49,200 nucleotides of DNA from Myxococcota bacterium (GCA_041288095.1 JBGGMJ010000181.1:1-49200); one strand, 5' to 3'. Numbered from the stretch's first letter, positions 30,486-36,441 are shown. Notes: generated by a model from the sequence alone, not told the origin. Translations and numbers: made by a program.

Positions 30486-32879
30486 CTAGGCGTTCTTGCC
30501 CATCGTGAACGCTTGCACGCGCTTGTCCCAATCACGGGCCGTCATGCCCAGCTTGCGCACCGACTCGCGTTGCAGCGGCGAGAGAGTGACGTACGCGGTG
30601 ACCATGACCATCGGCCACTTGGCGGCCGGCGTGTCCTTGGTGTCCCAGCTCTGCTGGTTCCAGCCGAGGTTCTTCAGGAGCGCGAGCTCGGTGCGGCTCA
30701 TCGACTTCCAGTTGAGCGGCAAAAGCGCGTCCATGGTGCGGACCGAGCTGCCGTCCTTCACCAGCGGCTTACCGGTGTACGGCGCGCCTTCGATGTCGCC
30801 AGTGCTTTGCGAGATCTCGGCGGGCAGCGCTTCGGCGCCCGGTGCCTTGACCGCGGAGTGATCGACGCCGCCGAGGTCGCGCTCGAAGGTGCGAGGGATG
30901 CCCCAGCCATCGACCTTGCCCTGCTGCCGGCTCTGCGGCCGTGTCCGCGTCTGCGAGCCTTCCTGCCCATGCGGCCGCGGTGCGACGTCGGTCTGGGTCA
31001 TCTCGGTTGCCGGCCCTTGCTCGACCGAGGTGATGTCGCCCTCGGCTCTACGAGCCCGTGAGCCGCGGGCTCCCATGAGCTGCTGCGTCACTTGCTGCGC
31101 GACCTGCCGGCTCACTTGCTCGGCGACTTGGCGCGCCACTTGGTCGGCGATGCTCTGTGCGATCTCACCGGCGTTGGCACCGCCCGGCGTCACCTGTTGC
31201 AGCGCGTTCGCGACGTGCCGCTGGATGTCCATCGAGCCGACGCGACCACCGATCTGGCGATCGGAGAGCTGACCGCGGAACGGCGTCGACGCGAGCTTCT
31301 CCTGCATCTCGGGCGACTGCTGCGGTCCCGAGGCCGCCTTCATATAGGCCGCTGTAGCGGTCTGCCGGCCGATCGGAGACGCCGAGTTCGGGTTGAAGTA
31401 CTTCGGCTTGCGACCAATGGCACGGCGCTCGTTGGCAATGGCGCGACGCTTGGCCGCCGGCATGCGCTTGGTGCGCAGCTCGCGCGCTTTCTGGCGCTGC
31501 AGCTTCTGCAGGCCGTCGAGCTTGTCGCCCATCTCCTGCGTCTTGGCGCCGATGAGCGCGCGGTCGTCGTCGGACAACCCGTTGAGATCGATGTCCTCGG
31601 GCTTGCGCAGCGTCTGCAGGCTGTTGACGTCCTCGAAGTACTTGGCGCTGCCGAGCTTCTTCTCGGCCTGCTCGTAGACGCGAGAGAGCTGCGTGTAGAA
31701 CTGGATGATCTTGGCGCGGTTCTGCGAGCGCACCTTGCCGGCGTCGTCGGGGTCTAAGCCCTCGGTCGACTGCATGCGCGGCGCCCTCGGCAGCGCCGAG
31801 GTCTTGGACTGCTTGAGCGCCGCCTCGGGGTCGATGCCGCCGGCTCCACCGCGCTGCACCTGCGAGGCGACCTTGGCGAGGAGCTTCGAGACCTGACCTT
31901 CGCGCGCCGGGAACTGCGGGCTCTGCAAGGTGCCGAGCAGCTTGTCGGTGATGGCGCGGAACTCGCTCGGCTTACCGCTGCCGATGGTCGCGAAGAAGCG
32001 GCCCTTATTCTGAGCGCTCTGCGTCTTGAACCGGTTGTGCGTCGCCAGCTTGTCGAAGCCCTCGCGGACCTCACCGGTGCCGTTCGCTTTGGCGAGCAGC
32101 TCGGTCGACTTGCCGCGGGCGAAGCTCGGGAGCTTGGCGATGTGCGGCTGCTGGATGAATGCGTCGACGTTGGTCATCGCGCCGGTGTCGCCGGGCCGCC
32201 GCGTCGCCATGCTCAGGGCGGCGCGCTGGGCGTTGCCGTTCGCGCCCTTGTTGGCGAGCGTGCCGAGCATGTCGCCGGCCTTCTTGAGCGAATCGGTCTT
32301 GCCGTCGCCCATGCGAGCCATGGCGAAGCGCAAGAACTCGTTTTTCGCCTTCTGGTCCGCTTTTGCAGACTGCATGAAGCGCGATTGCAAGACATCCGAG
32401 ATGAGCTTTTCGGACTTCGGATTGTCGATGACCGCGGCGTGGATGGTCGCGGCCTGCGGCGCGGTCTGCACCGCCTGCTTGAACGACGGCGCGTTCGCGA
32501 GCCGGTTCATGGCGTTGGCGGACTCGGTACCCTTCTTGGGGTTCGAAGCCATCGCCTCGCGGAAGAGATTCTTTTGCGCCTCGGTGAGCTTCTCTTGCAG
32601 CGCGCGGTTGTTCTGCCAGTCGTGCAAGGCATGCTGCGCCTCGGGACCGGCGTGACCGCCGAGGATCTGCTGCATGCGCGAATCGACGCGCTCGTTACGC
32701 GAGAAGGTCTCGCGCTGGACGACGCTTTCTTTGATGACCTCGCGTTTTACCGCCGCTTTTTTCTCGACCTCGCGACGCGCCGCCGCATCGGCCTCGCTGC
32801 CCATCTGCGTGCGCTGATAGGCAAGCTGGGCATCGTTTACGAGGCTCTGGACTTGGGCGTCGACCGCGTCGATTGGCAT
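30486..32879 (-). CDS. Hypothetical 797-aa helical protein with C-terminal Trp-containing tandem repeat
   Basis: Long ORF, Q/K/A-rich, no signal peptide or TM segment; TATGCT 8 nt upstream of the ATG. Confidence 0.85.
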   Translation of the reverse strand: MPIDAVDAQVQSLVNDAQLAYQRTQMGSEADAAARREVEKKAAVKREVIKESVVQRETFSRNERVDSRMQQILGGHAGPEAQHALHDWQNNRALQEKLTEAQKNLFREAMASNPKKGTESANAMNRLANAPSFKQAVQTAPQAATIHAAVIDNPKSEKLISDVLQSRFMQSAKADQKAKNEFLRFAMARMGDGKTDSLKKAGDMLGTLANKGANGNAQRAALSMATRRPGDTGAMTNVDAFIQQPHIAKLPSFARGKSTELLAKANGTGEVREGFDKLATHNRFKTQSAQNKGRFFATIGSGKPSEFRAITDKLLGTLQSPQFPAREGQVSKLLAKVASQVQRGGAGGIDPEAALKQSKTSALPRAPRMQSTEGLDPDDAGKVRSQNRAKIIQFYTQLSRVYEQAEKKLGSAKYFEDVNSLQTLRKPEDIDLNGLSDDDRALIGAKTQEMGDKLDGLQKLQRQKARELRTKRMPAAKRRAIANERRAIGRKPKYFNPNSASPIGRQTATAAYMKAASGPQQSPEMQEKLASTPFRGQLSDRQIGGRVGSMDIQRHVANALQQVTPGGANAGEIAQSIADQVARQVAEQVSRQVAQQVTQQLMGARGSRARRAEGDITSVEQGPATEMTQTDVAPRPHGQEGSQTRTRPQSRQQGKVDGWGIPRTFERDLGGVDHSAVKAPGAEALPAEISQSTGDIEGAPYTGKPLVKDGSSVRTMDALLPLNWKSMSRTELALLKNLGWNQQSWDTKDTPAAKWPMVMVTAYVTLSPLQRESVRKLGMTARDWDKRVQAFTMGKNA

Positions 32880-32941
32880 TGCGGTTTAGCATACCCGCGA
32901 CACCCTGAAATTGGCGAGCAACGACGACGCGGAACCCTGCC

Positions 32942-32988
32942 AAAAAGACACTGGCCGGGCAGACCCTCGTCGGGTGGCCCAGCCAGTG
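32942..32988 (-). terminator. Probable intrinsic terminator downstream of the filament-like gene
   Basis: Imperfect hairpin closed by CACTGGC/GCCAGTG, followed by TCTTTTT on the minus strand. Confidence 0.6.
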
Positions 32989-33012
32989 AGTAAATCCCTG
33001 TAAAGTCTCGGG

Positions 33013-33041
33013 AAACGGCGGCCGTACGGGCGCGGCCGCCG
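33013..33041 (-). terminator. GC-rich hairpin just after the stop of 33054..33959
   Basis: 9-bp stem CGGCGGCCG/CGGCCGCCG with 8-nt loop and short TTT tail. Confidence 0.5.
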
Positions 33042-34880: not shown

Positions 34881-35189
34881 GGGAAACTCCCTAAATTGTT
34901 TGAAAACCATGCCCGGCGGCTTTGCGGCCAACGGGCTAAACCAGAAACCAAAACCGCTGAAAAACCACGTGCCTTGCGGGCGTTAACCCCTGGGACACGA
35001 AACTTCGAATCGCGTGCCGTGCGCCGCACCATCGCGGCCACGCACTGGCGAGCCTTTGCTCGCGGCCTCGACACCAAAAGGTGGTCGAGAGGGACATCCA
35101 GACTTTACCCGCTGGGTCGTCGTGTGGCGGACTAATTAGCTGTCAATCCGTCACGCCCAAGCCACCGGCCGGGGAAGTGCGTCTACCGC

Positions 35190-35918
35190 TTACCTTTTGA
35201 AGACGAACGTCCGTTGAACGTTCAGCTCGCGGTTGATGCCCTTACTCATCTTTTGCGCTTCACCCACTGCGTGGTTACCTCTTTCGGTAACTTTCTGCAG
35301 GCCGTTGGCCAAATTGCGCTCGTTTAGGCCACCTTCTTCCACCTGCACACACCCCGCCTCACCTGCCACAACGAGGCCGGTGGCAAGGACTTTGTGGCCG
35401 AGGGGCACTTCGTCTTTGAGCTCGATGTTGAAGAGGCGCTTCACGTCCGTAGTGACGTCCTCGAGGGCGACTGGCTCGGGCGGCGCCCGCTCGGAGAGGC
35501 CTTGGAGCTTGCCCACGTCTTCTTCGATCGGCAGGAACGAGCTGCCTACGACCGCTTCGGCGAGGCTGCCGCCGGCTTCCGGGCTACGCGCGGCATCGGC
35601 AAACTGAGCGCTGGCGAGGGTCAGGTTCTCTTGGGCGCGATCGAGGCGTTCTTGCGTCCAGACGTCGGTGTCTTCGGTGCCGTCCTCGGGGATCGGGATG
35701 GGCGAGCGTGACGAATCGCCGACGTCGAAGTTGCGCTTCCTCGACGGGCCCATGCGCTGGAAGCCTGCCTGCTGCGCCACACGAGCGGCGTCTTGCGAGG
35801 CAATGCGCTTGGCGCTGGCGTCGCGGGTCTTCTGCGCCTCGACCTGCGACAGATCGGGCTTGAGGTCGGCTTTGGGGACGACGGGGGTGTTGACCTTATC
35901 GGGACCGCGCGTCGCCAT
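35190..35918 (-). CDS. Hypothetical protein immediately downstream of the SycD-like chaperone
   Basis: AAGGGG before ATG; 242 aa; no family recognised. Confidence 0.8.
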   Translation of the reverse strand: MATRGPDKVNTPVVPKADLKPDLSQVEAQKTRDASAKRIASQDAARVAQQAGFQRMGPSRKRNFDVGDSSRSPIPIPEDGTEDTDVWTQERLDRAQENLTLASAQFADAARSPEAGGSLAEAVVGSSFLPIEEDVGKLQGLSERAPPEPVALEDVTTDVKRLFNIELKDEVPLGHKVLATGLVVAGEAGCVQVEEGGLNERNLANGLQKVTERGNHAVGEAQKMSKGINRELNVQRTFVFKR

Positions 35919-35955
35919 GGAACCCCTTCGAACCGCCGTTCCTTACCAAAATACT

Positions 35956-36441
35956 CTACAGGTCGATGCCACGCACCTTCAGAAGCGTACGCGCCCGATT
36001 TACCCACTGGTTGTAGAACGGTTGATTGGTGCCGACTTCGACGGCAGTCCGCAAGTCCGTAACGCCTTCGTCAGCCATGCCAGCGCTGATCTTGGACTCG
36101 CCGCGGTAGGTGTAGCTGATGACGTCGTTCAGGTTGGTGGTGAGCGCCATGTCGTAGGCGACGATGGCTTCGTTCCACTTCTTGAGCGCCTGGTTGGCGG
36201 CCCCGGCGGCGCGCCAGTAACGGCTGACGAATGGCTTGTAGAGGGTCAGAACGCTGAAAACGTTCAGGGCCGCTTGGTACTTCCCGTAGTTGTACAGGTA
36301 GTGGCCCATCAAGAAGATGACCTCGATCTCTTTGTCGTCGAGGTTCAACAGGTCAGCGAGCGTCACTTCACCGCGCAAGAACTTCTTGGCGATGAACTCG
36401 ACGAGGCGAGCAAATGTCTCGACGACGCTATCGTTGGCCAT
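35956..36441 (-). CDS. SycD/LcrH-family (class II) type III secretion chaperone, TPR
   Basis: TLADLLNLDDKEIEVIFLMGHYLYNYGKYQAA...YWRAAGAANQALKKW; clear paralog of 23555..24064 (AYDMA, NDVxSxxYRGES). Confidence 0.85.
   Translation of the reverse strand: MANDSVVETFARLVEFIAKKFLRGEVTLADLLNLDDKEIEVIFLMGHYLYNYGKYQAALNVFSVLTLYKPFVSRYWRAAGAANQALKKWNEAIVAYDMALTTNLNDVISYTYRGESKISAGMADEGVTDLRTAVEVGTNQPFYNQWVNRARTLLKVRGIDL

Follow-up and report, generated by a model that had tools for sequence, protein, structure and literature searches.

A clade-specific cassette of LcrH/SycD-type chaperones and putative clients beside a type IVa pilus tip operon in Myxococcota

Introduction

What do chaperones of the type III secretion class serve at a locus where no secretion apparatus is encoded? 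The question is raised by a 49,200-nt stretch of DNA from a Myxococcota bacterium (GCA_041288095.1 JBGGMJ010000181.1:1-49200; hereafter the window, with a guanine-plus-cytosine (GC) content of 62-69%), in which five consecutive, co-oriented genes occupy the minus strand at 30486-36441. The first of these encodes a small tetratricopeptide repeat (TPR) protein of the SycD/LcrH kind, and the other four encode proteins of 242, 253, 301 and 797 residues. The original prediction, made from the sequence alone, took the genes for the extracellular part (filament, tip and cargo) of an unusual type III secretion system (T3SS). Here we describe them, together with a second chaperone gene, as a clade-specific cassette that comprises two chaperones of the LcrH/SycD type and four putative clients, which are soluble, without signals and largely helical. 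We favor, at a probability of roughly 40%, the reading that these four proteins are chaperoned and exported through a T3SS-type gate that is encoded elsewhere.

In the excerpts of the literature consulted, the cluster MXAN_2434-2464 of Myxococcus xanthus encodes a T3SS, denoted T3SS*, that contains several LcrH homologs, has unknown effectors, and lacks a secretin, needle and translocon (PMC10433427). According to excerpts from Herrou et al, the minor-pilin tips depend on T3SS* in the Kil Tad pilus, and they were proposed as a stand-in for the missing needle of T3SS* (PMC12075869). The substrates of T3SS* are described there as unknown, as is the way in which proteins are handed over to prey without a needle or secretin (PMC10433427; PMC12075869). 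An LcrH-type cassette attached to a pilus-tip operon would name candidates for these substrates and tie the two machines together physically in a way that can be tested.

Results

Anatomy and conservation of the cassette

Genes in the window were called by open reading frame (ORF) length and codon usage. The chaperone genes and the genes for the putative clients are as follows.

35956-36441, minus strand: TPR1, SycD/LcrH-type class II chaperone-like TPR protein, 161 aa (TIGR02552)
35190-35918, minus strand: P242, clade-specific protein, 242 aa, predicted TPR1 client (fold with TPR1)
34119-34880, minus strand: P253, coiled-coil protein, 253 aa from its ATG (sub-threshold coiled-coil matches)
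33054-33959, minus strand: P301, helical-hairpin protein, 301 aa from its ATG (member of a large unnamed family)
30486-32879, minus strand: P797, clade-specific basic protein, 797 aa (AlphaFold2 model with an alpha-solenoid, a disordered linker and a small C-terminal domain)
23555-24064, plus strand: TPR2, second SycD/LcrH-type paralog, 169 aa (TIGR02552)

From TPR1 through P242, P253 and P301 to P797, the intergenic gaps are 37, 309, 159 and 174 bp, and the gaps of 159-309 bp contain no convincing candidate for an additional small gene. An alternative start for P253, an upstream TTG at 34931, would give a protein of 270 aa. These calls bear out the five co-oriented genes of the original prediction, and hydropathy agrees with its claim that the four proteins encoded after TPR1 have neither a Sec signal nor a transmembrane helix. 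Their highest 19-residue Kyte-Doolittle means are 0.62-1.22, compared with 2.5-2.9 in the neighboring pilins, with transmembrane helices absent by this measure from all four, and none has a signal-peptide-like N terminus under the crude rule of our own that was used here and below, which depends on the start-codon calls. P301 is acidic, with a net charge of -20, and P797 is very basic (+35).

Scanning a single genome for each species, with an alignment of the P301 family as the seed, yielded 76 loci, all from metagenome-assembled genomes (MAGs). All of the relatives described here come from MAGs, the taxon labels and binning of which may be wrong. The arrangement TPR1-P242-P253-P301-P797 is not due to chance, since 12 of the 76 loci (L001-L005, L007, L008, L010, L013, L015, L017 and L058; hereafter the module loci) repeat it with gene order and orientation unchanged, as the original prediction would expect. 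The MAGs that contain these loci are labeled Myxococcota, Deltaproteobacteria, 'uncultured Bdellovibrionales' and, for L010, 'uncultured bacterium'. Variants include a fusion of P253 with P301 in L004 and an extra paralog inserted in L010, and there are partial copies of the module in L014 and L044. Among the 12 module loci and two partial copies, TPR2 is found in 11; it is convergent with the module just after P797 in L007, L008, L010, L013, L015 and L044, and in the subclade of the window four to five genes are inserted between P797 and TPR2. Conservation within the module is highest for TPR1, with 78-100% identity across its 12 orthologs compared with 29-94% for P242 and 40-92% for P797. 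Searching all ORFs of the loci with hidden Markov models of P242, P253 and TPR1 revealed no new paralogs.

The chaperones and the predicted TPR1-P242 complex

By sequence comparison, TPR1 and TPR2 group with class II T3SS chaperones and not with generic TPR proteins, which supports the assignment to SycD/LcrH in the original prediction. The best NCBIfam match of each is TIGR02552 (LcrH_SycD), at scores below the curated cutoff of the model, with E 3.7e-26 over 134 of 136 profile positions for TPR1 and E 3.1e-30 with near-full profile coverage for TPR2, and both score far better on this model than on any other TPR family. Further NCBIfam matches are SscA, SicA and SscB for TPR1, and SicA (50 bits), SscA, SctY and SscB for TPR2. 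Among solved structures, TPR1 best matches PcrH, SycD and AcrH, ahead of designed TPRs, and the top PDB matches of TPR2 are PcrH, AcrH, IpgC and SycD, with one engineered TPR ranked second. The two chaperones are 42% identical to each other. Public relatives of TPR2 are 75-100% identical to it and, where they are named, the JGI or NCBI label is LcrH/SycD chaperone; the organisms given for them are MAGs labeled Myxococcota and one labeled Halieaceae. TPR2 lies 61 bp upstream of a gene for a VIT-vWA protein at 24126-26573 on the plus strand, a pairing kept in L001-L003. Scored against the 'marine proteobacterial sortase target' model, the VIT-vWA protein reaches 466 bits, under the cutoff of 551, and it has a weak AgmX/PglI match in its C-terminal tail.

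P242 directly follows TPR1 in all 12 module loci. It has no Pfam or NCBIfam match at any threshold, and a profile search of 1.84 billion representatives returned only 62 proteins, mostly of similar length. Three parts of its alignment are conserved, namely a patch rich in proline at residues ~70-79, a segment of mild hydrophobicity at residues 173-186, and the C terminus. Folding TPR1 together with P242, a chaperone-neighbor check suggested by the original prediction, gave an interaction prediction score from aligned errors (ipSAE) of 0.93 in three of three runs, compared with 0.00 in three of three controls, this score being a confidence of the model and not a measurement. Among solved complexes 116 of 157 attain the 0.93 mark, as do 2 of 215 mismatched pairs, a calibration that is only rough here because our own alignments were used in the fold. 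The runs share at least 77% of their contacts, with a predicted local distance difference test (pLDDT) value of 68-70 for the partner, and the predicted contacts of TPR1 on P242 include residues 72-80, 118-163, 172-186 and 207-225. The model supports an arrangement in which TPR1 would wrap and hold P242, although part of the score may reflect likeness to solved class II chaperone-client complexes.

A type IVa pilus tip operon upstream of the cassette

The minus strand upstream of TPR1 encodes the following proteins.

43454-43990, minus strand: PilV-like minor pilin
42267-43457, minus strand: PilW (Pfam PilW)
41728-42267, minus strand: PilX (PilX_N)
37098-41702, minus strand: PilY1-like tip adhesin, 1534 aa (PF05567 T4P_PilY1, 4.6e-18; FG-GAP repeats)
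36532-37101, minus strand: GspH/FimU-like minor pilin, last gene of the operon (N_methyl 1.4e-10, GspH, TIGR01708)

Judged by their family matches (N_methyl, PilW, PilX_N, GspH and T4P_PilY1, with TIGR02523 among those of the PilV, PilW and PilX group), these genes are a complete minor-pilin/PilY1 tip set of a type IVa pilus (T4aP). The operon spans 36532-43990, and its last pilin gene ends 90 bp before TPR1; neither the operon nor TPR2 had been reported in the original prediction. The gene order agrees with the pilX, pilV, pilW, fimU synteny described for myxobacteria in the excerpt consulted (PMC13190605). A weak scan found no terminator-like site on the minus strand at 29700-37300, and the cassette is probably co-transcribed with the tip operon. 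No sigma-54 promoter was detected in the cassette: scanning with the sigma-54 consensus gave, at one mismatch or fewer, a sole match at 19074, compared with 3.5 expected by chance. A combined scan for sigma-70 promoters and terminators gave counts that were not above those in shuffled sequences.

In the window and in 7 of the 12 module loci (L001, L002, L003, L010, L013, L015 and L017), a pilus operon adjoins the cassette directly upstream, on its own strand and 32-101 bp away. In L005 and L008, genes for pilins and PilY1-like proteins are found close by on the opposite strand, and in L004, L007 and L058 the cassette is retained but has no pilin genes directly upstream. In a P797 tree of 14 rows, from which L058 was left out because its gene is split, the pilus-adjacent arrangement is found on the basal branches as well as in the clade of the window. 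The best tree requires two changes in adjacency to the pilus; in half of the bootstrap trees a single change suffices. The region at 44888-48081, upstream of the pilus operon, encodes on the minus strand the flotillin FloA paired with NfeD, as well as a c-type cytochrome of two domains. In L058, pilin genes are absent between FloA and the cassette, with FloA located one gene upstream.

This neighborhood suggests that the four proteins could be accessories or cargo of the pilus with no involvement of a T3SS. The T4aP machine or its minor-pilin/PilY1 tip would be loaded with them or would release them, and the TPR proteins would act as cytoplasmic holders. The same-strand adjacency in 8 of 13 cases, including basal branches of the P797 tree, favors this explanation, as do the opposite-strand pilin genes of L005 and L008, the lack of a detected terminator-like site, and precedents for pilus-dependent cargo summarized in the excerpt consulted (PMC12075869). 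Analogous arrangements would be the pseudopili of type II secretion systems (T2SSs) and the TcpB-TcpF pair of V. cholerae. Sec or Tat is the normal route across the inner membrane for cargo of T2SSs and type IV pili, whereas the four proteins have no signal peptides. The three cassettes without pilin genes directly upstream and the T3SS class of the chaperones also argue against pilus cargo, and we consider it unlikely.

P301 represents a widespread family with a conserved C-terminal helix

Within the module, P301 alone has relatives beyond the clade; its homologs number 911 at E ≤ 0.001. The family alignment shows conserved helices at residues ~130-180 and in the last ~50 residues, with a variable middle between them. 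Within the last 45 residues, most positions are 87-100% invariant among the motif-bearing copies in the loci, an invariance that exists partly by construction because the patterns used for the collection scan, GDDAQLAN and N[MI]LQKQQQ, lie in the C-terminal helix. Conservation of this region at the DNA level was considered and rejected: the frequency of the major base is 0.91, 0.96 and 0.64 at codon positions 1, 2 and 3, in loci with GC contents of 31-75%. The third codon positions vary, which indicates that selection acts on the protein. A literature string search for the conserved-helix motif found no paper.

The AlphaFold2 model of P301 (mean pLDDT 71.9, in a 303-residue numbering) consists of a small N-terminal beta domain followed by a hairpin of helices 133-182 and 241-302; this model and that of P797 are of medium confidence. 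The second helix corresponds to the amphipathic C-terminal helix of the original prediction, which thus stands as a helix, whereas its description as filament-type is not supported, as no needle, filament or tip family was matched. By eye, an EF-hand-like DxDxNGxxD loop can be seen in the N-terminal beta domain at 33860-33890 (P301 residues 24-33). The loop is common to about half of 24 aligned family members, also by eye, with no call from Pfam.

The middle of the protein differs widely across the family. Members of ~300 aa have no precomputed Pfam domain, and PF26745 is precomputed on some paralogs of ~485 aa. In some paralogs (P0066 and P0102), a DUF1521 (MIIA) domain with a GDPH motif lies between the two conserved helices; the excerpt consulted describes DUF1521 as the domain by which NopE-like proteins, which are type III-secreted, cleave themselves when triggered by Ca (PMC6506597). 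EF-hand inserts are present in some of the longer paralogs, and L053 encodes at 6854-14587 two tandem giants of 1113 and 1404 aa with a calpain-type cysteine protease domain. In L071 (2-2014, Chloroflexota MAG), an N-terminal domain like the gp19 tail tube is fused to the conserved C-terminal helix. Proteins with twin-arginine-like leaders and domains like the gp19 tail tube also flank a P301-family gene in L062 (8612-12685) and are encoded ~1.3 kb from one in L066 (10073-11095), the two loci being from Nitrospirota and Chthonomonadales MAGs.

Within the clade the family is multi-copy, with at least nine loci from one MAG, and L072 is a second P301-family locus from the MAG of the nearest relative of the window. 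Two kinds of chaperone-like neighbor were found. L057 encodes a tandem SycD-like protein, at 114.4 bits and above the cutoff, next to two P301-family paralogs, and in six loci, including L072, a 154-aa TPR protein with weak SctY and LcrH_SycD matches directly follows a P301-family paralog of 520-585 aa. Outside the clade, P301-family genes are standalone, and among 101 neighbors scanned, families recur only within close relatives. Four loci are from archaeal-labeled MAGs; two of their P301-family proteins begin with a zinc ribbon, and one of these adjoins the gene for ribosomal protein L44e. Members also occur in MAGs labeled Actinomycetota and Chloroflexota. A tblastn search of 50,697 phage and 72,556 plasmid records gave no match to P301. 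In two Gemmatimonadota loci (L028, 7314-11378; L034, 7227-11899), the P301-family gene is in an operon with a gene for a CsgG-like outer-membrane channel. These operons also contain genes for a DUF4412 protein and a PAD_porph-type deiminase, and at least the L034 copy of the P301-family protein has a signal peptide.

Could the four proteins instead remain inside the cell, as a cytoplasmic or membrane-associated coiled-coil assembly that serves as a scaffold or regulator, with the TPRs as ordinary adaptors derived from the SycD fold? The proteins have no export signals, no export machine was found in the window or scanned flanks, some P301-family members in other phyla lack both a signal peptide and a chaperone neighbor, archaeal members start with a zinc ribbon, and P797 combines strong basicity with a helical solenoid, all of which fit such an assembly. 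Conversely, 15 of 76 P301-family ORFs have signal-peptide-like, Sec-type N termini under our crude rule, all of them outside the Myxococcota-type loci. Together with the CsgG-linked operons, the Ca-dependent MIIA domain and the EF-hand inserts, these signals indicate that the P301 family works outside the cytoplasm elsewhere. The preference of both TPRs for LcrH_SycD over other TPR families likewise speaks against ordinary adaptors, making an intracellular role improbable.

Structural and pore-forming interpretations of the clients

The original prediction assigned needle-like, filament and tip identities to the clients, making them structural parts of an atypical injectisome. Axial proteins are, in general, built like P301, with terminal helices that are conserved and a middle that varies. 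Searches of a protein atlas with a language model returned neighbor clusters annotated 12% as EspA (score 0.89) and 12% as LcrV (0.88), which are leads only as both are below the 0.9 level. L011, in a MAG of the same group, encodes a true flagellin of 274 aa (8736-9560; Flagellin_N 4.8e-33, Flagellin_C 5.5e-18) 146 bp upstream of a P301-family gene (9707-10579) on the same strand, a hint of an export route of the flagellar type in one lineage or more. In spite of these resemblances, no Pfam needle, EspA, LcrV, IpaD or flagellin family is matched by any of the four proteins at E ≤ 10, the P301 family profile has no match among PDB sequences, and alignment of the family with the L011 flagellin by hhalign has a probability of 0.2%. 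Foldseek gave for P301 a best E of 0.045, with TM-scores of at most 0.38 apart from short prefoldin hairpins. The listed structures mix the flagellin core, SipD/IpaD, Hbl/Nhe/Xax toxins, V-ATPase stalks and prefoldin, which are all long helical hairpins, and for the flagellin core, SipD and IpaD the values are E 0.05-0.2 and TM-score 0.15-0.38 with a query of pLDDT 71.9. A multi-copy family with calpain-like and MIIA enzyme inserts would be unusual for a structural subunit, and its occurrence in archaea also argues against this role. The structural identities of the original prediction are therefore not sustained, and we regard them as very unlikely.

The remaining clients offer few links to known families. 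P253 has only sub-threshold matches of a generic coiled-coil kind in Pfam and NCBIfam, alongside SMC and Rad50. An N-terminal half like P253 is fused to a C-terminal half like P301 in L004 and P0020, which ties the two proteins together; in L004 the fusion is a single 449-aa protein at 9446-10795. For P797 there are 48 homologs of 37-92% identity, all unnamed or hypothetical and none with a Pfam domain, and the organism names shown for them are MAGs labeled Myxococcota or Deltaproteobacteria. The AlphaFold2 model of P797 (mean pLDDT 74.0) is confidently all-alpha at residues ~60-480, falls mostly below pLDDT 50 at 518-697, and has a small confident C-terminal domain. Foldseek matched it to helical-repeat proteins only (TAL-effector-like and designed), at E ≥ 0.027 and TM-score ≤ 0.38, and the protein atlas search with P797 returned nothing usable.

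A pore-forming toxin made of several alpha-helical components, as in the ClyA/Xax/Hbl group, in which P253, P301 and possibly P242 would act on prey membranes and the chaperone would prevent early assembly, is suggested by P253 matches to the XaxA family (E 7.9e-5) and MakB (3.3e-3), by weak P301 Foldseek matches to Hbl-B, PaxB, SmhA, NheA, XaxB and Cry6Aa, and by the P253-P301 fusion as a sign of joint working, but it is a long shot: the P253 matches are generic coiled-coil ones far below the cutoffs (22 bits compared with 125 in one case), a hydrophobic head or tongue is absent (highest 19-residue Kyte-Doolittle means of 0.62-0.90 for P253 and P301), and the Foldseek E-values are 0.05 or higher.

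Other features of the window

One further gene may belong to the cassette.

26679-28700, minus strand: u673, possible sixth member in the subclade of the window (no family match)

In L001, u673 is on the same strand, 45 bp after P797, and it is also found in L002 and L003. Between P797 and the gene for a helix-turn-helix (HTH)-cupin regulator, a 174-aa ORF at 29800-30324 on the minus strand is extremely methionine-rich, with runs of M, P and G. Its GC content is 0.94 at third codon positions and only ~0.4 at positions 1 and 2; it has no family match and is absent from L001-L003. A 733-aa protein encoded at 11135-13336 on the minus strand has eight disintegrin-domain stretches (PF00200, 6.3e-37). 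The other genes of the window with a Pfam match are housekeeping or unrelated genes, and no Rfam family reaches its gathering score within the window.

Discussion

The cassette could operate as a chaperoned export set. In the proposed mechanism, the TPR chaperones would keep their clients export-competent in the cytoplasm, and the clients would leave the cell through a T3SS-type gate encoded elsewhere, for which the needleless T3SS* would be the obvious candidate. They would then act outside the cytoplasm, at or near the tip of the pilus that is encoded upstream. P301 may be the working extracellular part, with its two conserved helices carrying a variable middle that is in places Ca-dependent or enzymatic. 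The proposed mechanism is favored by the class of the chaperones, the conserved gene order, the predicted TPR1-P242 pair, the recurrence of chaperone-like genes beside P301-family paralogs, the indications that the P301 family works outside the cytoplasm elsewhere, the adjoining pilus operon, and the literature on T3SS*.

Several observations weigh against export through such a gate. Pfam scans of 39 ORFs in the 49.2-kb window detected no sct, fli or flh family, in keeping with the original prediction, and no export-apparatus gene was detected among the neighbors scanned in the ±10 kb flanks of 39 Myxococcota-type loci (41, 81 and 75 proteins), where the sole flagellar gene is the single flagellin of L011. 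There is no hydrophobic translocator, as the neighbors of the chaperone genes have no transmembrane segment and no match to the SctE, SctB or SctA families. The curated cutoff of TIGR02552 is 104.8 bits, which places TPR1 (91.4 bits) below it and TPR2 (104.6 bits) 0.2 bits below. Class II chaperones classically bind their clients through a P/VxLxxP peptide in the concave face. This motif is absent from P242, P253, P301 and P797 and is not conserved in their orthologs, and the ipSAE of the TPR1-P242 pair is, as noted, a computed confidence. As for the pilus, the neighboring rsmE, glmU, glmS and floA/nfeD genes are syntenic across loci too, so that adjacency to the tip operon may be inherited gene order and is by itself weak for a functional tie. 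Finally, the function of the P301 family cannot depend on a T3SS, given its spread to MAGs labeled archaeal, Actinomycetota and Chloroflexota; the latter two phyla are not known to have injectisomes. With members in such organisms, some of them bearing Sec-like signals, the family is not intrinsically a T3SS part.

Chaperoned export through a T3SS-type gate could also be combined with the pilus. In such a hybrid route, LcrH-chaperoned cargo would pass a needleless T3SS-type gate and then be carried or presented by the T4aP minor-pilin/PilY1 tip from the same operon, with the C-terminal helix of the P301 family serving as a docking or self-assembly element that is reused across bacteria and archaea with the export route of each lineage. 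We consider this hybrid quite unlikely. The pairing of LcrH-type chaperones and non-hydrophobic, clade-specific clients beside a pilus-tip operon has no match in the excerpts of the T3SS* and pilus literature consulted, which were not gathered by a search aimed at this pairing. Whatever its export route, the P301 family deserves a name and a structure: its 911 matches have no Pfam model on the conserved helices, and it combines a near-invariant C-terminal helix of ~45 residues, found across phyla and domains of life, with swappable middles that include a protease, a Ca-triggered autocleavage domain and EF-hands.

As in the LcrH/SycD-YopB/YopD group (IpgC-IpaB/C, PcrH-PopB/D and AcrH-AopB), the gene for a small three-TPR chaperone comes first and the clients follow, the TPRs match TIGR02552 as well as PcrH, SycD, AcrH and IpgC, and a client is predicted to wrap the TPR. 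The cassette differs from these systems in that its clients have no transmembrane helices, no P/VxLxxP motif and no likeness to SctE, SctB or SctA, no sct genes are nearby, and there are two paralogous chaperones. With flagellin and other axial proteins, P301 shares conserved helices that flank a hypervariable middle, a TPR-type holder encoded next to the gene and, in L011, a paralog beside a flagellin gene, but it has no detectable sequence or profile homology to them. This group of known systems also includes needle or filament chaperones such as PscG/YscG and CesAB. The type III-secreted proteins NopE1/NopE2 and VIC_001052 contain the same DUF1521 domain as the P301-family paralogs P0066 and P0102 (excerpts of PMC6506597), whereas the P301 of the window does not.

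The closest biological parallel appears to be the partnership between T3SS* and pilus tips in M. xanthus, with which the cassette is compared by description. The pilus here is a T4aP (PilV/W/X/Y1/FimU) and not a Tad/Kil pilus, and T3SS* core genes were not seen in the window or scanned flanks. The two systems share a myxobacterial lineage and, as far as the excerpts describe T3SS*, the presence of LcrH homologs (PMC10433427). Just as minor-pilin tips are functionally tied to T3SS* in M. xanthus (excerpts of PMC12075869), the cassette described here adjoins a pilus-tip operon.

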